Shown piece after piece: positions 4,281 to 51,277 of a stretch of 64,000 bases of DNA. The notes below the pieces were generated by a model. The model saw only the letters and a list, made by a program, of their open reading frames with translations, was not told the origin of the DNA and searched no databases. Origin of the DNA: Limnochordaceae bacterium (GTDB lineage: Bacteria > Bacillota > Limnochordia > Limnochordales > DUMU01); NCBI GenBank assembly GCA_014896305.1, contig JADBKQ010000006.1, forward strand, positions 78,850 to 142,849. Direction: 5' to 3'. The position numbers and the translations under genes are program-made. Positions within the stretch are counted from its first letter, which is position 1. The number at the start of each line of letters is the position of its first letter.

Positions 4281-5167
4281 AGAGGATGGGGATGAACCCG
4301 AGCGGATCGGCCGCCTTCGGCCTGGCTCGACCGGGGCTCGTGGTCAACCGGCGCGCCCGCTGGACGGTTCCACTGTTGCATCTGGTATTGTTGGCAGGGG
4401 CAGCGGCCATGGTGCTCCCCTTTATATGGATGGTGCTCACCTCGTTCAAGCGGCCGGATGAAGTGTTTACGGTTCCGCTCAGCCTCTGGCCGCGGCACTG
4501 GGTCTGGTCAAACTATCCGGAAGCCTGGGCATCGGCGCCGTTCACCCGATACTTCCTGAATACGGTCTTCACCACGACGGCAACGACCCTGGGGCAGTTG
4601 GTGACCGGCATTCTGGCGGCGTACGCCTTTGCCCGCATGGAGTTTTGGGGGAGAGAGGTCATCTTTACGCTCTTCCTGGGGACGATGATGATCCCCGATA
4701 CGGTGGCTACCATCCCTAACTACCTGGTCATCAGCAAATTGGGATGGCTCGACACCTACCAGGCCTTGATCGTGCCCTGGACGGTCTCGGTCTTTGGTAT
4801 CTTCCTGCTCAGGCAGTTTTTCCTGACGATTCCCAAAGAACTGGAGGAGGCTGCGCTGATCGACGGGGCCTCCCGATTGACGTTTTTGTGGCGAGTGATG
4901 TTACCCCTGGCCCGCCCGGCTGTGCTGACGGTCACCTTGTTTAGCGTGGTGGGCGGCTGGAACAGCTTCTTTTGGCCCCTCATCGTCACCAACTCGGACG
5001 AGATGCGGACGGTGCAGGTGGGGGTGTCGGCCTTCTTCCAGGAGTATGGGACACAGCCTAACCTGGCCATGGCGGCCTCTACAGTGGCCGTGATTCCTGT
5101 GATCATCCTGTTTTTGTTCATCCAGCGGCAATTTGTGGAGGGGATTGCCCGGACTGGGATCCGGTGA
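4277..5167 (+). CDS. Carbohydrate ABC transporter permease (MalG/UgpE type)
   Basis: EAA loop EEAALIDGASRLTFLWRVMLPLARP. ATGA overlap with the preceding permease. The start could be a few codons downstream. Confidence 0.9.
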   Translation: MKRMGMNPSGSAAFGLARPGLVVNRRARWTVPLLHLVLLAGAAAMVLPFIWMVLTSFKRPDEVFTVPLSLWPRHWVWSNYPEAWASAPFTRYFLNTVFTTTATTLGQLVTGILAAYAFARMEFWGREVIFTLFLGTMMIPDTVATIPNYLVISKLGWLDTYQALIVPWTVSVFGIFLLRQFFLTIPKELEEAALIDGASRLTFLWRVMLPLARPAVLTVTLFSVVGGWNSFFWPLIVTNSDEMRTVQVGVSAFFQEYGTQPNLAMAASTVAVIPVIILFLFIQRQFVEGIARTGIR

Positions 5168-5525
5168 TAGAGACGCACAGAGCCGCAGAACGAGGCCAGT
5201 GAGGCGATCCCCGCACGGCGGGCCGTGCGCTTGGCGGCTGCGGGCTGTGGGCGGTGGATTTTCGCCCGGATGACCTGGATGACAATGTAACCGGACGGGA
5301 GAGTTTGCGGGGCAGGGGGATAGCTAGATGGAGCAGGGCCACGGACAAGATCAAGACAAGCAGGCGCGGACAGGCAGCGAGCCATCGGCGGGTGGTTGGC
5401 CGGGCAGGCGGATCGGGAGTGAACCGGACACGGGGCCTGGCTATGAGTCGGACCCGGGAAGAGGGGACGAACTGGGCCGCCGGGCAGGTAGCGAGCTGGG
5501 GAAGGGAGTGGCTGACATCGAGAGG

Positions 5526-16655: not shown

Positions 16656-19445
16656 TCAGAGTCGGGCCTGTACGACATCCCGATCCAGCCCTGCTACCGC
16701 AGCGCGGACATTCTGCTGCAGTTGCCCATCGGTGGGCAGGGCCTGGCTCATCTGCCGCAATAGGTCGATGGCTTGGCGACAAACGGTCACCAGGTCCCCC
16801 GGTTCGAGCGGGTGTCTTTCCAAAAGTTCGCCCAGGCTGATGCCGGCTGCCCATTCTTCCAGCGGCTCGGCTGCCGCCATGGAAAGCCGCAGTTCCCGGC
16901 CGTGTTCTTTGTCGGAGTAGCCGGCTCGTTCCCAGCGACGGCGCAGCCGGTCGGCCACCGCTGCCGCCTCCTTCCACCAGGCGGGTGGCCGGGTCGGCAA
17001 CGGCCAGCGTACGCCGGTCTCCAGCGCTTCGTCACCGACGATCGCGCCCGCCAGGCCCGCCAATTGCGCGGGGGTGAGGCGCTGCGGTACCCCTTCATAA
17101 AGGAGTTCAGTCACCAAGAGCTCGTGAACATACAGCCGGCGGCAGATCTGGCCCCGCGGCAACAGGCGGAAGCCGCAGTACGGCCGTACGGTCGCACCAG
17201 GAGTGGACGCGATCGGTTCAATGTATTCAAGCTGCGTCAATGTGGCCAGACGCTGGTGATACTCGACCAGCAGTGGGGAGGGATTCTCCTCCAACACCAG
17301 GGTTGGCCGTGATTGTGACGTATTTTTGTCCTCGCCTTGGTGAGCAGAAGAAAGACGCGAAGCAGCCTGCTTCTGCGATTGTGACGTATTTTTGTCCTCG
17401 CCTTGGTAGGCCCTGAGGGAACGACGGAGTACCTCTTCGGCCTGGGCCACTCCCCGTTGCCAGGTCAAGTTGAGAACGAAGTTGTACGACAGATGCAGGT
17501 GGCTCACGATAGGCTCGGCCTGTACCTTTTCCCAGTCTATGGCGATGGGCAGCTCCGGCCAGCGGTTGGTGGCCAGCCAGCGTTGCAGGTCGTGGAACTC
17601 GATGCGGCTGATCACCATGCCTACCCGGTCGATCCCCCGCCGCCCCGCCCGTCCCGCCATCTGCAGATACTCCTGCCGAGTGAGGGGGCGCAGGTGCGCC
17701 CCGGCGTGCTTCTCCAGCGTGTCGAAGCAGACGGCCCGGACCGGCATATTCACGCCGACGGCAAAGGTCTCGGTGGCATAGAGAACCCGCAGTACTCGCC
17801 GCTCCAGCAGGCTTTCCACGATGCGCTTGACGGCCGGCAGCAGGCCCGCGTGATGGTAAGCGATGCCCCGCTGCCAAAGTTGCATCAGTTTGGGCAGGTC
17901 GGGGATCTGGGCTGCCACCAGCCCGAGTTGCTTCAGGGTCTGCTCCACCGTGATGCGCACAGTCTCCTTCTGCGCTCGCCGTAGGTAGTCGTGGTGGCGG
18001 GCGAGCTGGGAAGCATACTGTTCACAACTGCGACGACTGAACACGAAGTAGAGGGTGGGGAAGAGGAGCTCGTCTTGCGCATACTGCACGAGCTGCAGGT
18101 GGGTGGTGCGGGTGCGCAGGCTGCGGTTGAACCGGCCGCCCAGCGCCAGCGCGGCCAGCCTCGATCCCAGCTCCTGCCAGTCCAGGGTCCGCCCCTTGAG
18201 CTCGAGGTCATCCCGGTCAGGGTAGGCCCAGTGCGTGAACGAGGCGAGCAGGCCGGAGGCATCCTGGACACCCGACCGTTCATTGAAGAAGCGGTGTACC
18301 AAAGGCACGCTGCGCTTGTGAGACTGGACCAGCGCACACGGTTCACCGGTGGCCTGAGTGATCCAGGCAGCGAGCTGGGCGGCGTTGGCGATGGTCGCCG
18401 ACAGCCCGAGCAGGTGAACTCCCGGCGGCAGGAGCAGGATGGCTTCTTCCCAAACCGTGCCCCGCTCTGGGTGGTCCAGGTAGTGGATTTCATCGAAGAT
18501 GACCCATGAGACGCCAGCCAGTACAGACGGCCCGGGAGAAGGGATAGCGGGCGACCGGGCCGTGCCGGAGGGTGTGGCAGGTGGCTGGGGTGTGCCGGGC
18601 GGTGTGGCGGACGACTGGGGCATGCCAGAGGGTGTGACGCACGACTGGGCCGTACCAGGTGCGGCGGGCGACTGGGCCGTGCTGGGGGCGGCGGGCGAAT
18701 GAGGCATGCCGGAGGGTGGGATGGGCGACTGGGGCATGCCGGAGGGCGGGATGGGCGACTGGGCTGCGGGCAGCGGGGATGCTGTCAGTGCCAGCGGTTC
18801 ACCGGGCGGGGTTGCCCACGGCGAAGCGGCTATATCGTCGGTGTACAGCAGCATATTTCGCAAAACCTCGGTGGTCATGAGGAGCAGAGGAGCGCCGGAA
18901 TTGGAGGAGACATCGCCGGTGAGGATTCCCACCCGGTGCGCGCCAAAGTGGCGGGCAAACTCGCGGTACTTCTGGTTCACCAGGGCCTTGACGGGGCCTG
19001 TGTAGTTGATACGCTGGTTGACTTTGAGAGCAGTGTCGACCAGGTAATCAGCGATGAGAGTCTTGCCTGTGCCCGTGGGGGCGCACACCAGAGTGGAAGT
19101 CTGCTGGTTGAGATACATAATCGCCTCAGACTGGAATGGATCCAGGCTGAGGCCGTGATACTCCCGGACCAGTGCAGCGAAGGGGCGTTGGGACGACTTC
19201 TTCGCCGAGACTCCTGACGCCAGCCCCGCCAGACTACCGCTGGAACGTTGGGGCAGAGCTACTCCGGCGGAATGCTGGGGCGGAGCTATTGCCGTGTCCC
19301 CCGCCGAACCTTCGGTTGGCTCCTCTTGCTCGTCCGGACCGCCCGCTGAGGAGTTCGCCGGGGTATCGCCAGAGGTTCGGATTTTCCCCAGTTCGCCTAG
19401 GGGAATCGTCAGCCGGTGTTCGTCCATATCTGCCACTGCTGTCAT
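16656..19445 (-). CDS. Ski2/HelY-like DEAD/DEAH-box (SF2) helicase with DSHCT-like C-terminus and repeat insertions
   Basis: LDPFQSEAIMYL..LVCAPTGTGKTLIADY, PVKALVNQKYREF, MTTEVLRNML, FDEIHYL, GLSATI, HHAGLLP, MAGRAGRRG. The C-terminal EWAAGISLGELL..GDLVTVCRQAIDLLRQ resembles the HelY/Mtr4 DSHCT region. Confidence 0.85.
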   Translation of the reverse strand: MTAVADMDEHRLTIPLGELGKIRTSGDTPANSSAGGPDEQEEPTEGSAGDTAIAPPQHSAGVALPQRSSGSLAGLASGVSAKKSSQRPFAALVREYHGLSLDPFQSEAIMYLNQQTSTLVCAPTGTGKTLIADYLVDTALKVNQRINYTGPVKALVNQKYREFARHFGAHRVGILTGDVSSNSGAPLLLMTTEVLRNMLLYTDDIAASPWATPPGEPLALTASPLPAAQSPIPPSGMPQSPIPPSGMPHSPAAPSTAQSPAAPGTAQSCVTPSGMPQSSATPPGTPQPPATPSGTARSPAIPSPGPSVLAGVSWVIFDEIHYLDHPERGTVWEEAILLLPPGVHLLGLSATIANAAQLAAWITQATGEPCALVQSHKRSVPLVHRFFNERSGVQDASGLLASFTHWAYPDRDDLELKGRTLDWQELGSRLAALALGGRFNRSLRTRTTHLQLVQYAQDELLFPTLYFVFSRRSCEQYASQLARHHDYLRRAQKETVRITVEQTLKQLGLVAAQIPDLPKLMQLWQRGIAYHHAGLLPAVKRIVESLLERRVLRVLYATETFAVGVNMPVRAVCFDTLEKHAGAHLRPLTRQEYLQMAGRAGRRGIDRVGMVISRIEFHDLQRWLATNRWPELPIAIDWEKVQAEPIVSHLHLSYNFVLNLTWQRGVAQAEEVLRRSLRAYQGEDKNTSQSQKQAASRLSSAHQGEDKNTSQSRPTLVLEENPSPLLVEYHQRLATLTQLEYIEPIASTPGATVRPYCGFRLLPRGQICRRLYVHELLVTELLYEGVPQRLTPAQLAGLAGAIVGDEALETGVRWPLPTRPPAWWKEAAAVADRLRRRWERAGYSDKEHGRELRLSMAAAEPLEEWAAGISLGELLERHPLEPGDLVTVCRQAIDLLRQMSQALPTDGQLQQNVRAAVAGLDRDVVQARL

Positions 19446-19603: not shown

Positions 19604-20404
19604 TCAAGCCCGCTTGTCTACCAGGCGGCCAACCTTCTTGCCTTCCAGTGGGTCCGCCTCATTGACAGTACACCGCTGGATGTATCGGTTCGAGATGGCT
19701 GTTAACTCGACTAGAACAGGATCGTCCGGATCCACCTGCCGGAGGGGGAGCAGAGATGCGACCTCTTTGAGCTTTTGCTGCATTTGCCGGGGGGTGAGGT
19801 CGGTGGCCGTAATGATGATCAGATGAATCTGGTGCTGCTGACTCATGCCCGATTTCGCGTAATCGTACAGGATCTGTCGCTTTGCCTGCTCCTCGTCGGG
19901 GTACTTGACGGTAGGCCCATAGTGCTGTGGGCCGTTGAACTCGAAAGCGACGAAGGGCGGATAGAACCGATCGAATTCTAGGATGCCCTCGGTGAGGGGA
20001 TTGCGTAAGAAACCAGGTCTGGCGTTATCGATGTAGTCGATTGTCCCAATAAGAAGGTTCAGCCACTCCCGCATCAGGGCCTCCCCCAGTTGCTCGGCCT
20101 GTTGCAGCCGCCGGTGCATCTTCTTAAGCTCTTCCAGGCGCTGCTCGCGCCATCGATCGTGCAGATGCCAGTGGGTTATCTTGCCAGAACGCCGTTCGAT
20201 TGACAGCCAGCCTGTCTCTAACAGCCGTCGTATGTAACGCCGCACGGCGGGGCGCGAAACCCCCAAGCACCTGGCCATCTGAGCATTGCTAATGGCGAGC
20301 TTACCGTCGCGGCCGGCCTGTCTGGTCATCCAAATGTAGAAATACTGGGCCATGACGGGGAGATCACCATCAAGCAGGTGGTAAGGCACTTTCACAGCAT
20401 CCAT
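19604..20404 (-). CDS. Hypothetical protein: N-terminal winged-HTH plus C-terminal Vsr/DUF559-like endonuclease-fold region
   Basis: Start chosen at the ATG at 20404, which has AGGAGGG 8 nt upstream and lies downstream of a canonical promoter. HTH: ISNAQMARCLGVSRPAVRRYIRRLLETGWL. The C-terminus LEFDRFYPPFVAFEFNGPQHYG...EEQAKRQILYDYAKSG...IHLIIIT resembles the DUF559 pattern D..(hydrophobic)3-E-x-D/N-G-x2-H. GC is visibly lower than in neighbouring genes. Confidence 0.6.
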   Translation of the reverse strand: MDAVKVPYHLLDGDLPVMAQYFYIWMTRQAGRDGKLAISNAQMARCLGVSRPAVRRYIRRLLETGWLSIERRSGKITHWHLHDRWREQRLEELKKMHRRLQQAEQLGEALMREWLNLLIGTIDYIDNARPGFLRNPLTEGILEFDRFYPPFVAFEFNGPQHYGPTVKYPDEEQAKRQILYDYAKSGMSQQHQIHLIIITATDLTPRQMQQKLKEVASLLPLRQVDPDDPVLVELTAISNRYIQRCTVNEADPLEGKKVGRLVDKRA

Positions 20405-20443: not shown

Positions 20444-20472
20444 ATTATAACCAATCATAGCATCTAAATCAA
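20444..20472 (-). promoter_or_regulatory. Sigma70-type promoter (TTGATT-17 nt-TATAAT) for the wHTH/nuclease-like gene
   Basis: The minus strand reads TTGATTtagatgctatgattggtTATAAT. The -35 is at 20472-20467 and the -10 at 20449-20444. Confidence 0.55.
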
Positions 20473-20487
20473 ACTCAGATCAAGCCC

Positions 20488-21040
20488 TTGCGGCCGGTGC
20501 GAGGACACAGAGTGCCGTGGCTGAAGCTATCGGCGGAGACCCCGCCTGCTGCACATTCGGCAGGATGCGAGGATACAGAGTGCTATGGCTGTAGGGCGAT
20601 TGTCTGGCACCCACCGGGTTCGGAGCGACGCGCCGTCCGTTGTTAGGCGTGACCGACCCAAACCCGGCAGATGGAAAAATAGTTGCCCGTCCAGAAGGCC
20701 AAAGACAGGAAATCAAATTGCCAGCACCCCCTCGAAGTCGGTCGGAGCGACCGAAGGGCTTTGCGCTTTGCAGCTAGGGCTGGCCGGAAGCAGGGGGAAT
20801 GCCTTGGGGGGGAGGAGGGCTGAGGTTCGCCCGGAAGAGAGACTCCTCGTCTAGCAGCAGCTAAGGTTTGCGCAGCTACAGCTCTGTCGCGTGCTAGCTG
20901 GGATTTTGGAGTCCGGCAGGTGGGAGCAGACGGCTGGTGGCAATATAATTGCCGACTAGTCCTCCGAGGGATGGGTATTATTTTTTCCACCTAATCTTTG
21001 GTCGCCCGGGTCAACGGTCTAGCCGGGCGATCGCGCATGG
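20488..21040. repeat. Conserved non-coding element, copy A (candidate structured RNA; family not recognised)
   Basis: Colinear with 36130-36612 through at least 8 near-identical blocks. Hairpins are conserved. No conserved ORF. The 5' part holds an internal direct repeat (20488-20523 / 20556-20591). Confidence 0.6.
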
Positions 21041-21378
21041 TGGCCGGCACCTTCTTTTGGCCGCCCGGCTGAACGACATCCTGCCCATCCACGCCGGTTG
21101 GTCAGGTCGAAATGCCCGTACGAACGGGCGCACACTGTATGCCTGTGCCTGCATCAGGACTGTGGGGTGCTCGAACTGGCTTTGGTCGGCAAGGGGGCAG
21201 GAACCCTGCCTTTGGGGGCTCGCTTCCAGTAGTCAAGGGCAGGGTGTGAGTAAAGTGTTTGTGGGTTCCAGTTGATCCCTCCCGCGGGAGGGGGAGGCCA
21301 GGGATTGGGCGCAGGTGTGGATCCCGCGCGGGGCGCAAAGCCCGGGGGTTCAGACCGAGCCCAGGGCAGGAGTGGTGA

Positions 21379-21407
21379 TTGACAGGGGCAGAAGAAGCGG
21401 GTATTAT
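21379..21407 (+). promoter_or_regulatory. Sigma70-type promoter candidate (TTGACA-17 nt-TATTAT) upstream of the T-box leader
   Basis: TTGACA at 21379-21384, a 17-nt spacer, then TATTAT at 21402-21407. Confidence 0.5.
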
Positions 21408-21519
21408 CACGGTTAATCTCTCCTCTGATATGGGCGGCTATTGCCGTCCTGGTCTGAGGGGATGTTTGAGCTTCGTCGGAGTCCAACGCCAGGGTTGACA
21501 ATGCCATCTCATAGAGACG

Positions 21520-22040
21520 TTGAAGGGGAGGAGTAGCTGGCCAACGGGCGTCCAGAGAGGCGGCGATCGGTGGGAAGCCGCTGCGCCAAGGGCTAGTGAA
21601 GTTCGCCCCGGAGTCGCAGGCTGAAGTCGCCGGCCAGCATGTGCATGATATGCAGGCCCAGCTTATACGGCTGGTGATGGGCTAGGGGGCGATGGGTAGG
21701 CCGAGCCGGACCTCTGCCGTTACACAGAGCAGATCTCGCCAGTAATATGTCCTGGCAGCACGTGTCTACGGGCACAGAGCCTGACAAAGCCTGATCAGCT
21801 TGTCAGCTTGATGGCTTTCGGAAACGGGTGGCCCAAGGGCATAGCGGGCGGTATCTGATAACAAGGCTGTACAAGAGAGCGGTCGACAGGCCCGTGACCT
21901 ATCGAGTGTGGCAAGAAAGCTCGAGCCTGGGCTGAACGCCGTTGCCAGTGTGCCTGGGTTGTACCTGGGTTGTACAGCGAAGTCGGGTGGTACCACGGGG
22001 AAGACCTCGTCCTGAAGCAAGGACGGGGTTTTCTTTTTTC
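21520..22040 (+). promoter_or_regulatory. T-box riboswitch leader (unusually long, possibly composite) controlling aroF
   Basis: Stem I elements: UGAAGGGGAGGAGUAG, an AGAGAG bulge (21554-21559), distal-loop GGUGGGAA (21569-21576), and specifier-loop GUGAAG-UUC-G (UUC at 21602-21604). F-box-like CCGTTA near 21713. Canonical T-box sequence GGGTGGTACCACGGGG at 21985-22000. Terminator hairpin plus T-run at 22005-22040. Confidence 0.8.
22005..22040 (+). terminator. T-box terminator hairpin
   Basis: CCTCGTCCT-gaagca-AGGACGGGG (9 bp) is followed by TTTTCTTTTTTC. Confidence 0.75.
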
Positions 22041-22347
22041 GGCTTGTGTTTCGCACCGTGGCCTGGCTACCACGATGGCGGCGGCGGCAGTGGCAGTTAC
22101 GGTGGCGATGGCGGTAGGGTAGTAGCTCCGGCGACGATGGCGGAGATGGCGGTGGTGGCAGTTCTGGCCGTGTGACGCGGCGCGGGCAGTGCAGGGGGAC
22201 TGGGACGTTGTCGTGGGCTGGGACGATGATGCCTGCTGGGGCGATGACATCTCCCTCGAACGATGGCCGATGACGTCCGGGGACGTCGGGCAGTGGATGG
22301 ACGGACGACAGATCAGTCTTGCTGACGACAGCGAGGAGGCGGTGGCT

Positions 22348-23391
22348 GTGATCATCGTGATGCGGCCGGGGGCGTCGCAAGAGCAAGTAGAGGCGGTGCA
22401 ACAGCGGTTGGCGGCGCTGGGGTTTGCGGGGCATCCGATTTATGGTGACCATCAAGTCGTGATCGGCGCTATCGGGGCTAAGCCCCTGCCGGACCTGGAG
22501 GTCTTGGAGGAGCTACCAGGAGTGGAACGGGTCGTACGAGTCATGCACCCGTTCAAGCTGGTGAGTCGTGAGGTGAACCCGGCCGGCAGCGTGGTCATGG
22601 TTGGGGATGTGCCCGTCGGGGGCCGGCAACTGGCGGTCATCGCTGGCCCGTGTGCGGTGGAAAGCGAAGCGCAGCTGATGGAGACCGTCACTGCGGTCCG
22701 GGCGGCGGGCGCAAACCTATTACGGGGCGGGGCGTTCAAGCCGCGCAGTTCGCCCTACAGCTTCCAGGGAATGGGCGAAGAGGCGCTCAAGCTGCTGGCA
22801 GCGGCACGGGAGAAGACCGGTCTTCCCGTAGTGACGGAAGTGCTGGCCGTGCGCCAGGTGGAGCTGGTGGCGCAATATGCGGATGCGCTGCAGATCGGCG
22901 CCCGCAACATGCAGAACTTTGAATTGCTGCGTGAGGTGGGCCGCCAGAGCAAGCCGGTGTTGCTCAAGCGAGGAATGTCGGCCACGATCGAAGAGTGGCT
23001 GATGGCGGCAGAGTACATCGTCAACGAAGGCAATCAGAACGTAATTCTGGTGGAGCGAGGCATTCGCACGTTCGAGCCGGCCACCCGCAGCACGCTGGAT
23101 GTTAGTGCGGTCGTGGTTGCACGTGGGCTGACGCACTTGCCGATCCTGGTCGATCCCAGCCACGCGGCCGGCAAGTGGCAGTGGGTGTCGGGACTGGCCC
23201 GAGCCGGGGTGGCGGCCGGAGCGGATGGTCTCATGGTCGAGGTTCATCCCCATCCGGAACAGGCGCTCTCTGACGGACCACAGGCCCTTACCCCGCCCGT
23301 TTTCACTGAACTGATGCGCAGCCTCGCCCCCCTGGCGCAGGCGGTGGGGCGTTCGTTGCCCCAGAGGCATCCGGTGGCGGCGGCTGTCTGA
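22348..23391 (+). CDS. aroF: 3-deoxy-7-phosphoheptulonate (DAHP) synthase, type I-beta with N-terminal ferredoxin-like regulatory domain
   Basis: GAGGAGG lies 8 nt upstream of the GTG at 22348, giving VIIVMRPG..., which parallels the Thermotoga-type N-terminus. Core motifs: IAGPCAVES, LRGGAFKPRSSPYSFQG, IGARNMQNF, KPVLLKRG, LVDPSH. The ORF is open from 22189, but that extension has no support. Confidence 0.9.
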   Translation: MIIVMRPGASQEQVEAVQQRLAALGFAGHPIYGDHQVVIGAIGAKPLPDLEVLEELPGVERVVRVMHPFKLVSREVNPAGSVVMVGDVPVGGRQLAVIAGPCAVESEAQLMETVTAVRAAGANLLRGGAFKPRSSPYSFQGMGEEALKLLAAAREKTGLPVVTEVLAVRQVELVAQYADALQIGARNMQNFELLREVGRQSKPVLLKRGMSATIEEWLMAAEYIVNEGNQNVILVERGIRTFEPATRSTLDVSAVVVARGLTHLPILVDPSHAAGKWQWVSGLARAGVAAGADGLMVEVHPHPEQALSDGPQALTPPVFTELMRSLAPLAQAVGRSLPQRHPVAAAV

Positions 23392-23470: not shown

Positions 23471-25390
23471 CTATTCAGTGGCCTGATCTGAGTGAGAGTG
23501 AGTGTGCAGGTGTGCCAGCTGTGTTTTCACCGCTCGGTAGCGGCGCTGGGCGTGGGGTGGGCGATACGAGTCATCGAGCAGCTCCAGCAGGTGAACCGCC
23601 TGCCCTCCTGTCTTGCCCTGCACCAACCCGTCCTCCAGCTGCATCATGCAGGCTGGGCAGGCCGTGGAGAGCAGCTGAGCCCCGCTTTCGCGAAAATGGT
23701 CGACCTTCCGCTGACGGATGCGATCGGACAGCTGGGGATGTTCCAGGAAGTAGATGCCGGCGCCGCCGCAGCACCGATCGGCTTCAGCCATTTCGACGAA
23801 GGTCACCCCAGGGATGCGCTGCAACAGCTCACGGGGCTGGCGGCGCACCCCCTGGCTACGGGCTAGATGGCAGGGGTCATGATACGTGACCGTGGCCGGG
23901 CGGGCCAGCCGATACGGCCCGGCCTGAACGTGGAGTTCATCCACCAGGTACTCGCTGGCGTCCCGTACTCGCGCCGCGGCCTGCTCCAGCCGGGCGCGGA
24001 TCTCCGGCTCGTTGCGGAAGAGCGCAGTGGCGTGATGGCGTAACTGCGCACCGCACGAACCGCAAGCGGTCAAAATGCGTTCCATGCCGGCCTTCTGCAA
24101 ATCCTCCATGATCTGCAGGTTGTGCAGGACCTGGCGGCGGGCCTGCACCCACGCCCCATGCACTTGCGCCGGCATTCCGCAACAAGACCACTTGGCGGGC
24201 GTCACCATCTCCACCTGGTTTTCGGCCAGGATGTGGTGTAAGGCGATTCCTACGTCGGTGTACGCCTGCGAGATGAGGCAGCCCGGGAAGAAGGCGACCC
24301 GTTGCTGCGGATGAACCGGCTTCTTCTCCCGCGCCAGCTGGGCGATGAGCGAACGTTTGGCCAGCTTCGGGAAAACCCTCCGCCCGACCCATGGCAACGG
24401 AAAGCGGGGCTGCTGCGCACCGGGCTCTGTCGGCTGAACCCCGCCGCCGGTGGCCACCGAGTTGGCGGCCGAGCGGGGGGCAGAGGCGGCAGCCCAGACC
24501 GGCGGAGCGGCAGAGGCGACGGCCGACGCATCGGCATCGGCGGAGGCAGACGCCTCAATGTCGGTGGGGGCCGGTGCATCGGCAGCGGTGGAGTCCGACG
24601 CATCGATGTTGGCGGCGGCAGGCGTATCGGCATCGGCGGCGGCCGGCGCCGCGGCAGCAGTTGAATCAGAGGCAGAACCGATAGAACGCATGATCAGACC
24701 CTGGCCCAGAGCGCCAAGGCGCGCCCCCACTCGCAAGACCGTGGGATGGCCCAGTACCCCCTGGATCGCAATCCGCTTGACCCACGGCAGTCCAAACAAC
24801 CGTTGCCAATCGGCCCGCGCTGCGCTAATCACTTCAGTCACCGGCACACCCGCCGGGCAGGCGGCGACGCACGCCCCGCACTCCAGGCAGGCGAAGAGAG
24901 CCTCGAAATACTGCCGGCGAGCGGGTCCATCGATGGGTTCGGGAGAGGCTTCAAACAGGCCCGAAAAGGGAGCGGGCACTGGCGCATATCGTTGCTGAAT
25001 CAGGTTGAGGCGGCCACGGGCCGCATCCGTCTCGAGCCCGCTCTCCGCGTACGTCGGGCAGGGGCCCATGCAGAACCCGCACTTGAGACACCGATCCAGG
25101 TCCGTTATGAACGGAGACACTTCGGAGCGCCTCAAGGTTGGTGCCGGTGTTGATATTGGTGTCGGTGCTGGCGTTGATGTAGACGTCGGTACTGGCGTCG
25201 ATGTTGGTGCCAGTGTTGATGTCGGTGACGGTGTGGGCGTCGATGTAGACGTCGGGGCTGATGGTGATGTTGGTGCGGGTGTCGCTCCAACCCCCGAGGG
25301 CACTGGGGTGGCCACGCTTATCGCCTCCAGGTAGGAGTTCGCCTCCGGGTACGAGTCACGAGTCCTTCGGGTGCAGGAGGTGCAGTACAA
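23471..25390 (-). CDS. glcF: (Fe-S)-binding oxidoreductase subunit, GlcF / heterodisulfide-reductase-like (two CCG domains) with low-complexity insertions
   Basis: Ferredoxin-type clusters CLKCGFCMGPCP and CLECGACVAACP. CCG-type motifs: FFPGC, CCGMP, HDPCHL, CCGGAG. The N-terminal T/S/P-rich 90 aa may be non-coding, so the true start is possibly near 25130. Confidence 0.8.
   Translation of the reverse strand: MYCTSCTRRTRDSYPEANSYLEAISVATPVPSGVGATPAPTSPSAPTSTSTPTPSPTSTLAPTSTPVPTSTSTPAPTPISTPAPTLRRSEVSPFITDLDRCLKCGFCMGPCPTYAESGLETDAARGRLNLIQQRYAPVPAPFSGLFEASPEPIDGPARRQYFEALFACLECGACVAACPAGVPVTEVISAARADWQRLFGLPWVKRIAIQGVLGHPTVLRVGARLGALGQGLIMRSIGSASDSTAAAAPAAADADTPAAANIDASDSTAADAPAPTDIEASASADADASAVASAAPPVWAAASAPRSAANSVATGGGVQPTEPGAQQPRFPLPWVGRRVFPKLAKRSLIAQLAREKKPVHPQQRVAFFPGCLISQAYTDVGIALHHILAENQVEMVTPAKWSCCGMPAQVHGAWVQARRQVLHNLQIMEDLQKAGMERILTACGSCGAQLRHHATALFRNEPEIRARLEQAAARVRDASEYLVDELHVQAGPYRLARPATVTYHDPCHLARSQGVRRQPRELLQRIPGVTFVEMAEADRCCGGAGIYFLEHPQLSDRIRQRKVDHFRESGAQLLSTACPACMMQLEDGLVQGKTGGQAVHLLELLDDSYRPPHAQRRYRAVKTQLAHLHTHSHSDQATE
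25135..25300. repeat. Degenerate short tandem repeat (GGTGNCGGTGTTGATRT-like units)
   Basis: Repeated ggtgccggtgttgat / gtcggtactggcgtcgat units lie between the glcD stop and the first conserved Cys cluster of glcF. Read on the minus strand they encode (T/S)(S/T)TP repeats. Confidence 0.6.
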
Positions 25391-35872: not shown

Positions 35873-36129
35873 ATGGTCATCTCCCCGAGCCGTTCTCATC
35901 TGTCTGTTGACATATTCGGCACGGCGAGGCCCGGTCTTTATGGAACGCTGCGTGGCCTGCTGGGACGGGGGCACTGCACTAAGGTTCAAAGGGAGGGATG
36001 TGAAGCTTGACCTTTGCTGAGCAAGCCTTGTTGTCCTTGGGGGGCACTGACTGAGGTGAGGCGGCTGTACGCCGAATGCCCGATACCGTCTGTTGCCCGG
36101 CATGGCAGAGGACTATGTGCGGAGCGCTG

Positions 36130-36612
36130 CCGGCTCCCACAGGTTATGCCATGGCTAAGGATTGCAGGTGGTTTGTCTACACCCGAGTTCCGAGCGAAAC
36201 CGTCACCCGACTCCCAGGAGGGTAGTCTTGGGGATGCCGATGTAGACTGATGTAGACTCCAGGAAGGTGGAAAAAAAGTTGCCCACCCAAAGAGGCGGAG
36301 GTAGGAAATTTAATTGCCAGCAGCTGCTCCGAAGTCGTCTGGACAGACCGAACGGCCTTGGTCCCCCTGATCAGAGGTGGCTGTGAGCAGGGAAAACGAA
36401 CGGGAAGGCAACGGACGGCGCAGCTGAGGTTCATCCTGGATTGCTAAGGCTTGGGCAGCTAGATTGCACTAGCTGGTCTTTTGGTGTGGGGGCGGTGGGT
36501 TCAGGTGTGTGGTGGCAATATAGTTACCACCAGGTTCAGGAAAAACCGGGCAATTCTTTTGCCACCTTGACTGGGTTGCGCGGGGGTCCAGGTCTGACGG
36601 GAGAGTTTGAGC
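36130..36612. repeat. Conserved non-coding element, copy B (same family as 20488-21040)
   Basis: Colinear blocks shared with copy A, as listed in the findings. It occupies the intergenic region between the cheW start and the hydrolase stop. Confidence 0.6.
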
Positions 36613-36769
36613 ATACCCACGCCCACCTGCAGCCATCAGGCCCGCAGAGCGGTCGACGCCCGGGCGCAGGGTGATTGCGCGAGCGACATCCGCCGGCGTC
36701 GCGAAGTCTTGCAGGCCCACCTATAGCAACAGTCAGGCCCGCAGAGTTGAAGGTTCACCAGCCGGACGG

Positions 36770-37927
36770 TCAGGGCGTGGAGGCGGCTAAGAGCGGTGTT
36801 ACGGCCTGAGCGAAGGCTTCCGGCTGCTCGAGGGCGGTCAGGTGGCCTGCTTGCGGGATGCGCACCAGGCGGGCGGTGGGAATGTTGGCAGCCATGGCCG
36901 CGGCCTCGGCCGGGGGCGAGAACTGGTCTTCTTCGCCTACGATGACCACGGAAGGTACATTGATCGTGGGAAGCAGGAGGGTGGAATCGGCGCGTTGGGC
37001 CATGGCTCGGGCTGCGGCCACCAGGCCGTCGACGGAGTTTTGCAGGATCCAGGTGCGAAGCTGACCTATGAGTTCGGGACGGGCGGATCGGGTGGTGGGG
37101 CCGATTAGCCCGGGCACGAACTGGTCCACGGCAGCAGCAGCTCCCTCCGCGTGCAGGCGTTCAATGAGACGGAAGCGGTTGTCACGAGCGGACGGCGAGT
37201 CGGCGCTGGCCCTGGTGTCGGCCAGAACGAGGCCGGCAACATGCTCACGATGAAGACGCCAGAGGGCCAGGGCGATGTACCCCCCCATCGACAGCCCGGC
37301 AAAGATGGCGCGGCGGACACCAAGGCCATCCAGGAAGCGGACGATCGCGTCAGCATAGGCGTCGATAGAAGCCAGGGCGTCGATGGAAGGCAGGGCGTCG
37401 CTGGAAGCCAGCTCAACCCCATCGCTAGCTGGGTTCTCTACTTGGTCAGTACCAGGTAGAGAGCACCCATTTTTGTTGGCGTCGGACGTGCCGGCAGTTT
37501 GACTCTTGTCCGCCATGAAATCACCTCCAGGCACCGTTAGGTTGGTGTCGGACGTGCCAGCAGTTTGACTGCTGCGACTTTTGCCAAACCCAGGCAGATC
37601 GGGGGCTATCACCCGCGTTGCCTTTCCGAGCAGTTCTAGTTGTTTCGTCCACATCGCGCTATGGAGGGGGTAAGCGTGAAGCAGGACGAGGGGGGCGGAA
37701 TGGCTGCTTGTCCCCGAGTCAAGGTAAGACCAATGAATCGGGCCAAGGTCTAAGGATTTCAACGAGTACTGGGGCCATACACCAGCCTCAGGGTTACTTC
37801 CCGGATGTCTGGATGGTGATACACCGGCTTCCCGGTTGCTCTCCAGCCGCCCATGTGGTAACAAACTACTGGCCACAGGGTCACTTCCTGGCTGTCTGTG
37901 CAGCATCCGAATGGTACAAGCCTCCAT
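36770..37927 (-). CDS. Alpha/beta hydrolase with internal duplicated low-complexity insertion
   Basis: AAAGGAGG RBS lies upstream of the ATG at 37927. Motifs: LVLLHAYPLHSAMW, APDLPGFGKS, GLSMGGYIAL, QAGHL. The inserted segment SQTAGTSD..SQTAGTSD comes from a DNA duplication at about 37470-37580. Confidence 0.78.
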   Translation of the reverse strand: MEACTIRMLHRQPGSDPVASSLLPHGRLESNREAGVSPSRHPGSNPEAGVWPQYSLKSLDLGPIHWSYLDSGTSSHSAPLVLLHAYPLHSAMWTKQLELLGKATRVIAPDLPGFGKSRSSQTAGTSDTNLTVPGGDFMADKSQTAGTSDANKNGCSLPGTDQVENPASDGVELASSDALPSIDALASIDAYADAIVRFLDGLGVRRAIFAGLSMGGYIALALWRLHREHVAGLVLADTRASADSPSARDNRFRLIERLHAEGAAAAVDQFVPGLIGPTTRSARPELIGQLRTWILQNSVDGLVAAARAMAQRADSTLLLPTINVPSVVIVGEEDQFSPPAEAAAMAANIPTARLVRIPQAGHLTALEQPEAFAQAVTPLLAASTP

Positions 37928-51116: not shown

Positions 51117-51184
51117 CTATTAGTATCTCCTACGGATGTGCCACGTCCTGGGTCTCCGTACCATACGGTAAAAGGGATTAGGTA

Positions 51185-51277
51185 CGAGGTCAAGCCCATC
51201 TCGGTAAGAGCTGGATTACTGATCCCCCTCCGCATCCCGCACGCTAAGTGCGAGGTCAAGCCCGTCTCGGCAAGAGC
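51185..51277. repeat. Direct repeat pair, 66-nt period (cgaggtcaagcccRtctcggYaagagc)
   Basis: Copies start at 51185 and 51251. Confidence 0.6.

Follow-up and report, generated by a model that had tools for sequence, protein, structure and literature searches.

The window, as the whole 64-kb stretch of Limnochordaceae bacterium DNA analysed here (contig JADBKQ010000006.1) is called, carries two copies of a non-coding element. Their solid shared parts, copy A at 20663-20995 and copy B at 36259-36570, are colinear and on the same strand. Beside copy A is a minus-strand gene (19604-20404) for a protein with a winged helix-turn-helix (wHTH) domain and a PD-(D/E)xK nuclease domain. Each copy is, on balance, probably a double-stranded DNA cis element that serves as a binding platform for this wHTH-nuclease protein, copy B being an orphan copy. 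Four observations carry this reading: the anatomy of the element, its adjacency to the gene, the link seen across the family between such genes and phased arrays of palindromes, and the lack of the module in two syntenic relatives.

Each copy contains four 15-bp palindromes, GGCAA-N5-TTGCC with an A/T-rich spacer, grouped as two pairs. They are listed here without strand.

20673..20687: M1 of copy A, GGAAAAATAGTTGCC, from sequence, motif and repeat searches.
20708..20722: M2 of copy A, GGAAATCAAATTGCC, 35 bp from M1.
20939..20953: M3 of copy A, GGCAATATAATTGCC, with 0 mismatches to the palindrome consensus.
20974..20988: M4 of copy A, GGTATTATTTTTTCC, degenerate, at 35 bp from M3; its inverted partner is M1 (pair I1), and it aligns with M4 of copy B.
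36269..36283: M1 of copy B, GGAAAAAAAGTTGCC.
36304..36318: M2 of copy B, GGAAATTTAATTGCC.
36514..36528: M3 of copy B, GGCAATATAGTTACC.
36549..36563: M4 of copy B, GGCAATTCTTTTGCC, a perfect palindrome consensus (0 mismatches).

The start-to-start distances M1-M2, M2-M3 and M3-M4 are 35, 231 and 35 bp in copy A and 35, 210 and 35 bp in copy B. The right pair is inverted with respect to the left pair, and the pairs enclose a conserved core of about 200 bp. Repeat finding (pairs I1 and I2) detects imperfect inverted arms of about 60 nt in each copy, 71-86% complementary (20669-20729 against 20932-20992 in copy A, 36264-36322 against 36510-36568 in copy B). A similarity search also paired the right end of one copy with the reverse complement of the left end of the other. 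The window holds six occurrences of TGGNANNNNNNTTGCC, where 0.56 would be expected, and the elements account for five of them. With at most one mismatch, GGCAA-N5-TTGCC is found 14 times in the 64 kb; half of these (7 of 14), both perfect matches included, are inside the two elements, which together span about 660 bp. When copy A is compared with copy B, 4 of 40 half-site positions and 6 of 20 spacer positions are changed, versus about 38% of the element as a whole.

The initial annotation had described the region as a duplicated non-coding element with eight shared blocks, and all eight are found in both copies at the positions it gave. Blocks 1, 2, 7 and 8, the most conserved ones, are the palindromes. 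That annotation overlooked the palindromes themselves, the inverted-repeat ends and the phased upstream arrays in the family of the neighbouring protein. The duplication stands: BLASTN with 20600-21040 as query hits the window again at 36259-36604 in the same orientation (E 2.5e-23, 62.6% identity in 374 alignment columns), and repeat finding in the window recovers the A/B pairs as families D4 and D6. The copy count covers the 64-kb window, where nhmmer with a two-copy profile found no third copy. The limits proposed for copy A, 20488-21040, were somewhat generous. The part 20663-20995 is solid. To its left there is a weak extension of about 80 nt (20582-20628 against 36154-36197, z = 2.6 versus shuffles), and to the right of 20995 and 36570 no similarity is shared (z = -0.2).

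20582..20662, plus strand: weakly conserved left extension of copy A, aligning with 36154-36258 (z = 2.6).
36154..36258, plus strand: weakly conserved left extension of copy B, from the shuffle-tested alignment.

The element is non-coding, as had been proposed, because the alignment of A and B has indels of 1, 7, 21 and 8 nt, with perfectly conserved blocks flanking those that break the frame, and because the frame of CGAAGTCG differs between the copies. A small open reading frame (ORF) with a TTG start after M1 in both copies was rejected, since the conserved block CGAAGTCG would be read in different frames in A and B. It is not a known Rfam family either. The whole window gives 0 matches at the gathering score, and both copies give only noise at E <= 10 (best E-value 0.47). 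Note that the Rfam scan works in this region, since a comparable scan recovered a T-box leader 500 nt away (E 1.1e-14). Neither the two-copy profile nor a core-only profile found a relative of the element in 96 fetched loci with nhmmer, and thus there are no extra sequences for covariation. The pattern TTGCCN{15,25}GGAAATNNAATTGCCAGC was searched in genome contigs and discarded: it gave six matches in unrelated phyla, all due to chance, and the one inspected is coding sequence.

The protein encoded next to copy A has two recognizable domains.

19604..20404, minus strand: gene for the wHTH + PD-(D/E)xK (DUF559 / homing-endonuclease-like) protein of 266 amino acids, from Pfam, PHROGs, AlphaFold2 and Foldseek.
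20444..20472, minus strand: predicted sigma-70-like promoter of this gene, TTGATT-17-TATAAT, a 10/12 consensus match only.

The start is taken as the ATG at 20404, which is preceded by GGAGG, and M1 of copy A is about 270 bp from the gene start. Since the element is upstream of the predicted promoter, copy A is not in the 5' untranslated region. Pfam gives HTH matches only (residues 33-95). PHROGs finds a phage replication-initiator wHTH at residues 12-83 (E 1.9e-8) and a homing endonuclease at residues 87-217 (E 1.6e-7), and NCBIfam and PADLOC models give no match above noise. The AlphaFold2 model, built with an alignment of 39 homologues, has a predicted local distance difference test score (pLDDT) of 91.8. 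Against the PDB, Foldseek matches it to winged-helix regulators only (e.g., MarR/AdcR, AspA, and Rep, with a complex of Rep and a DNA unwinding element (Rep-DUE) listed). Against BFVD, its matches include restriction-endonuclease and homing-endonuclease proteins together with DUF559 and DUF2726 ones, with about 120 residues aligned at 2.5-3.4 A, and these matches are assigned to the C-terminal half on the basis of the PHROG domain boundaries. Residues D145, E155-F-N-G-P-Q-H-Y162, D181 and K184 are invariant in the 39 homologues. They suggest a live active site and are putative catalytic residues.

With E <= 1e-30 as the cut-off, an exhaustive profile search gave 394 clusters (50% identity). 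A few members have names, 'hypothetical' or 'ArsR family', and these come from Bacillota, Symbiobacteriaceae and similar metagenome-assembled genomes; the closest match in the protein collections is 46% identical. Many family members are 320-450 amino acids long and have a second N-terminal winged-helix domain (two matched stretches), and the window protein has one. A plasmid, phage or virus origin was rejected on the following searches: tblastn against 72,556 plasmids gave no match, phage genomes gave weak nuclease-domain matches only, and IMG/VR gave two partial matches. No second wHTH-nuclease gene or remnant was found near copy B or elsewhere in the window.

About 90 loci encoding homologues were fetched, metagenomes included. 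None has sequence similar to the element. In many of them, however, a long non-coding stretch upstream of the gene holds an array of short palindromes, whose site sequence is lineage-specific and whose phasing is 31-35 bp. The arrays are mostly direct repeats. The layouts are as follows.

L007: GGTGCA-N4-TGCACC, spacing 34/158/34.
L049, L050, L054, L055, L056 and L065: GGAAT-N3/4-ATTCC, 10-14 copies every 34-36 bp.
L067: GGAAT-N3/4-ATTCC, 8 copies shown, the contig end cutting the array.
L026: a site containing GAAAAATTC, present 7 times with a 35-bp period.
L038: sites paired at 35 bp, the pairs recurring at 149-bp intervals.
L085: sites paired at 35 bp, the pairs recurring at 170-bp intervals.
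L046, L019 and L075: pairs in two-plus-two layouts.
L048: around 15 sites, most of them with a period of 31-32 bp.
L010: sites paired at 23-24 bp, the pairs recurring after 202 bp.

When an array is taken to require two or more spacings of 30-38 bp within the best repeat family, 14 of 41 upstream windows contain one, versus 17 of 273 control windows drawn from these loci (Fisher p 2.6e-6). Every site motif clusters only within loci of its own lineage, and in several loci the site pairs are inverted doublets of 20-26 nt. L061 (also L063 and L064) has two arrays of one 64-bp unit with the site AATCAAATCTTG, at 2188-2560 and 4776-5227, of which one is upstream of the homologue gene and the other about 1.1 kb downstream, past another ORF. 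This second array offers an independent parallel to copy B as an orphan. The contigs of L049, L050, L065 and L067 are 95-99% identical, yet the numbers of 35-bp (and 69-70-bp) units differ in their GGAAT-N3/4-ATTCC arrays, which are about 125-540 bp upstream of the gene. Therefore these arrays expand and contract quickly. The 72 nearest neighbour ORFs of the homologues are unrelated housekeeping genes and one transposase. Among them there is no conserved partner gene and no integrase, type IV secretion system (T4SS), coupling protein, partition, plasmid or cas gene. L081 and L083 share 99.8% identity up to the end of the wHTH-nuclease gene, upstream region included, and diverge completely from the stop codon (L081 4631 / L083 2052); this breakpoint at the 3' end of the gene could be a rearrangement boundary or an assembly artefact.

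By its sequence, the window is that of a Limnochordia-like member of Bacillota without a close relative in the databases searched. The best database matches of its CheA are 49% and 47% identical. Two contigs, L012 (a Limnochordales genome assembly) and L014, keep the gene order of the window: DEAD/DSHCT helicase, DAHP synthase, ..., CCG/Fer4, ..., CheR-B-D-C-A-W. The wHTH gene and the element are absent from both. The helicase and DAHP synthase genes are close together in L014 too, and the gap between them in L012 is 535 bp and holds a terminator-type leader. Since neither contig has a wHTH gene between these two genes, the segment from 19446 to about 21378, comprising the gene, copy A and flanks, is extra in the window. 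Copy B is located exactly at a synteny break upstream of cheW. In L012 and L014, cheW follows an FGGY kinase gene by about 100 bp (97 bp in L012).

These features are consistent with the following mechanism. Dimers of the winged-helix domain would recognise the four 15-bp palindromes, in which the half-sites are one helical turn apart, and the 35-bp distance within a pair would favour cooperative binding. The inverted pairs bracket the core of about 200 bp with its two small hairpins. The restriction-endonuclease-fold domain, with its invariant acidic, histidine and lysine residues, would thereby be held next to the core, which we conjecture to be the most likely place of DNA nicking, cutting or remodelling. 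Alternatively, the complex may simply mark or regulate the locus. The gene and copy A would form a compact module of at most 1.9 kb, with copy B served in trans. Candidate functions include autoregulation, DNA processing or mobilisation of the module, and chromosome-level marking. Binding of the protein to these sites is what we infer from the co-occurrence of gene and sites, and the activity of the complex is conjecture.

The core has its own conserved parts, which bear on whether the element acts as DNA or as RNA.

20727..20938, plus strand: conserved core of copy A, aligning with the core of copy B (z = 10 versus shuffles).
36323..36513, plus strand: conserved core of copy B, from the shuffle test and alignment.
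20738-20754, core: hairpin 1 of copy A, TCGGTCG-gag-CGACCGA.
36336-36351, core: hairpin 1 of copy B, TCG-TCT/AGA(C)CGA.
20819-20828 (A) and 36423-36432 (B), core: block GCTGAGGTTC.
Within 20860-20909, core: hairpin 2 of copy A, CAGCTA...TAGCTG and then TTTTGG.
36456-36475, core: hairpin 2 of copy B, CAGCTAG-attgca-CTAGCTG and then a TTTT run.

The initial annotation had read the conservation pattern as a sign of RNA or DNA structure; a reading of it mainly as RNA structure is not supported in that form. An RNA element would be a structured noncoding RNA of about 330 nt on either strand, with closing helices M1-M4 and M2-M3 and functional core hairpins; or the core alone would be a small RNA ending at hairpin 2 and its U-run. 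We regard this as unlikely. The stems of the hairpins are conserved and their loops vary (17 nt in A versus 6 nt in B for hairpin 2). Hairpin 1, which had been described within block 3, indeed keeps its pairing through one G-C to U-A exchange. The loop variation, together with this single compensatory change, is the best argument for nucleic-acid structure, which would be RNA or single-stranded DNA. On the plus strand of copy B, hairpin 2 and its TTTT were flagged as terminator-like. Both strands of both copies fold with identical nested long-range helices, but any DNA inverted repeat folds so on both strands. In folding, copy B moderately outperforms shuffles (z = -2.6 for the plus and -3.4 for the minus strand), whereas copy A does not (z = -0.26 and -0.98). 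RNAalifold reports nine 'compensatory' pairs on either strand. Such pairs are expected when a structure is fitted to two sequences, and the controls on them are circular because the structure was derived from these same two, a number from which covariation cannot be established. The long helices are uninformative since every one of them is invariant between the copies. No Rfam family matches, and no sigma-70-like promoter was found inside or just upstream of the element on either strand. Three features argue instead for DNA sites of a dimeric protein: the sites in the arms are palindromes in themselves, a property that a dimeric protein requires and a long-range RNA helix does not; conservation is highest at the half-sites; and the 35-bp spacing recurs in homologue arrays of unrelated sequence, mostly direct repeats that are unable to form stems as RNA. 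Thus the element found earlier is real, its RNA-leaning interpretation is only partly supported, and the reading as a DNA element is better supported, with a structured RNA in the core alone retaining some probability.

The inverted-repeat ends also recall mobile DNA, i.e., a decayed miniature inverted-repeat transposable element (MITE) or REPIN-like doublet with imperfect terminal inverted repeats of about 60 bp, moved by a transposase acting in trans. This origin would fit the two dispersed copies, one of them next to a nuclease gene, the difference from related genomes at both positions, and the 20-26-nt inverted doublets of several homologue loci, but we consider it quite unlikely. In keeping with the initial annotation, which matched the element to no insertion-sequence end, no insertion sequence or MITE is recognisable: the inverted-repeat ends are present, but neither copy shows a target-site duplication, and no direct repeat abuts the arms. 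Weak homology extends about 80 nt past the left inverted repeat, conservation at only 62% identity is block-wise rather than uniform, and a third copy is missing from the 64 kb. The nuclease gene lies outside the inverted repeats, and its product matches no known transposase family above noise. Least probable, and in our view also quite unlikely, is an ordinary control region of the minus-strand wHTH gene and the cheW-cheA operon, with sigma-54-type promoters or enhancer sites (TGG-N9-TTGC, -24/-12 spacing). GG-N10-GC is present in all eight sites and TTGC in seven of them (the reference is TGGCAC-N5-TTGCW, with GG and GC 12 nt apart), each copy is upstream of a minus-strand gene in one and the same orientation, as had been stated before, and sigma-54 activators are present in related genomes. 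Yet the four sites per element face both directions, which is not promoter logic, with M1 and M2 directed away from the downstream genes. No plus-strand gene lies where copy B could drive it; the gene next on that side (a hydrolase, 36770-37927) is convergent. The homologue arrays use unrelated palindromes that do not fit (GGAAT-N4-ATTCC, GGTGCA-N4-TGCACC, TTGCATTTTTGCAA), and the relatives run their cheW operon without such an element, in the short gap after the FGGY kinase gene. Because of the two-way sites, the lack of a plus-strand target at copy B and the non-fitting homologue palindromes, the sigma-54 resemblance is best seen as a by-product of the palindromes.

Several points weigh against the binding-platform reading itself. 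Adjacency and family-wide co-occurrence are circumstantial support. The association is not universal: clear arrays phased at 30-38 bp are found in about one third of the upstream regions, the spacing in L010 is 23-24 bp, and L028 and L057 have no obvious array. The sites are about 200 bp upstream of the predicted promoter, unlike those of a simple repressor. The palindromes leave the core blocks and the two hairpins unexplained, and the variable loops with one compensatory change are a signature of RNA or single-stranded DNA structure. The copies are old and not recently mobilised, since they are only 62% identical.

Among known systems, the nearest in the architecture of the protein and the logic of the cis site is TraX of pAD1 with its oriT2. 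TraX is a MOBC relaxase with an N-terminal winged helix and a C-terminal restriction-endonuclease fold (Francia et al. 2013, as summarised in PMC12857230), and the window protein also combines wHTH and PD-(D/E)xK domains. Its wHTH binds short repeats 70-120 bp from the oriT2 nic site, which is within an inverted repeat (PMC12857230). In both cases the cis site adjoins the gene, and the sites in the window flank a hairpin-bearing core. However, TraX has five direct repeats, whereas the window sites are palindromes at 35-bp phasing. The window protein has no tblastn match in the 72,556 plasmids, and no coupling protein, T4SS, integrase or plasmid gene is found among the 72 neighbouring ORFs of its homologues; on sequence and on genomic context it does not belong with the MOBC relaxases.

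RTP of Bacillus subtilis is a winged-helix dimer that binds Ter, composite sites of two adjacent dimer sites whose orientation matters (PMC10331603). A site in its own promoter region (RTP autoregulation) and further chromosomal copies resemble the window, where copy A is by the gene and copy B elsewhere. Unlike the window protein, RTP lacks a nuclease domain. The RTP A and B sites abut, whereas the window sites are 35 bp apart, and wHTH-nuclease homologues carry up to 14 sites. Both copies in the window have the same orientation and are not opposed. GC skew is positive throughout the 64 kb with no switch, and thus the window is not a replication terminus.

In the RAYT-REP/REPIN system, a single-copy chromosomal nuclease gene is beside its own lineage-specific palindromes, and doublets or clusters also occur elsewhere (PMC3337134, PMC3116915). 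The likeness is in lineage-specific repeats and in a system that is not plasmid- or phage-borne. RAYTs, however, are HUH/Y1 transposases acting on single-stranded hairpins, while the window protein is wHTH + PD-(D/E)xK. REPs exist in hundreds of near-identical copies, against two copies of 62% identity within 64 kb in the window, and the arrays of the wHTH-nuclease family are mainly on one side of the gene. Iterons and centromere-like arrays (plasmid/phage Rep, pNOB8 AspA, TubR/tubC, ParR/parC) are also phased repeat arrays upstream of the binder's gene, and the window sites resemble iterons; the N-terminal domain of the window protein resembles a phage replication-initiator wHTH, and AspA and the Rep-DUE complex are among its Foldseek matches. 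The elements differ in having no AT-rich unwinding region, GC being 0.57-0.61 across them with no AT-rich stretch. A partner ATPase or GTPase is lacking, the family is chromosomal, solitary and absent from the 72,556 plasmids, and the window protein carries a nuclease domain. The arrays are not like CRISPR arrays. Homologue sites are 13-15 bp with a 35-bp period and often duplicated spacers, whereas CRISPR has repeats of 23-47 nt and unique spacers; the 72 neighbouring ORFs include no cas families, and PADLOC gives noise only.

A wider proposal is possible but doubtful. The wHTH + PD-(D/E)xK proteins of Limnochordia, Symbiobacteriia and related Bacillota and their lineage-specific arrays of about 35-bp phasing might form an undescribed class of chromosomal nuclease-repeat systems, with RAYT-REPIN-like or relaxase-oriT-like logic and different chemistry. 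In such a system the cis element would be processed or copied by its own nuclease, with orphans such as copy B as dispersed, trans-dependent progeny. A literature search, which was aimed at the known analogues and not at the family, found no description of this pairing of wHTH-nucleases and arrays. If the binding-platform reading holds, an unannotated family (about 400 clusters at 50% identity) gains a defined and easily testable DNA target, and a new pairing of nuclease and cognate repeat stands beside RAYT-REP, relaxase-oriT and RTP-Ter. That the phasing stays at 35 bp while the site sequences are unrelated points to a specific higher-order assembly of protein and DNA. For annotation, this reading would account for the tandem arrays and the large 'empty' stretches between genes in Limnochordia-type genomes. 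It further gives a caution, that inverted repeats alone are insufficient to call such regions RNAs.

Other repeats surround the two copies.

20498-20526 and 20566-20594, plus strand: two 29-nt direct repeats (TGCGAGGAYACAGAGTGCYRTGGCTGWAG), 86% identical and 68 nt apart (family D1).

These direct repeats sit between the wHTH gene promoter and copy A. At the equivalent place by copy B, a stretch at about 36110-36200 weakly resembles them. To the right of copy A are short direct repeats TTTGGYCGCCCGGSTSAACG (20997-21016 / 21056-21075, 59 nt apart), and to the right of copy B is a duplication of about 95 nt (36618-36650 / 36712-36746). The repeats on the right are not common to the two copies.

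Elsewhere in the window, a T-box leader (RF00230, 68.7 bits, E 1.1e-14) is found on the plus strand at 21511-22017, upstream of the DAHP synthase gene (22189-23391). Its score is under the gathering score of 93, which is why the default scan did not report it. It has a promoter-like site at 21379-21407 and a terminator at about 22005-22040, and the terminator-type leader of L012 is in the equivalent position. Repeats are found within coding sequences as well. A tandem repeat with a period of 30 nt (18548-18763, 7.4 copies, 75% matches) lies between helicase motifs in the DEAD/DSHCT helicase ORF, and in-frame coding repeats are also present at 24508-24656 and 25137-25276 in the CCG/Fer4 gene. 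Three repeat pairs, at 17311-17407, 37475-37570 and 51179-51277, are mutually unrelated in sequence and have start-to-start distances of exactly 66 nt (22 codons). Their identities are 100%, 93% and 88%, respectively, and the first two are within the helicase and hydrolase ORFs.

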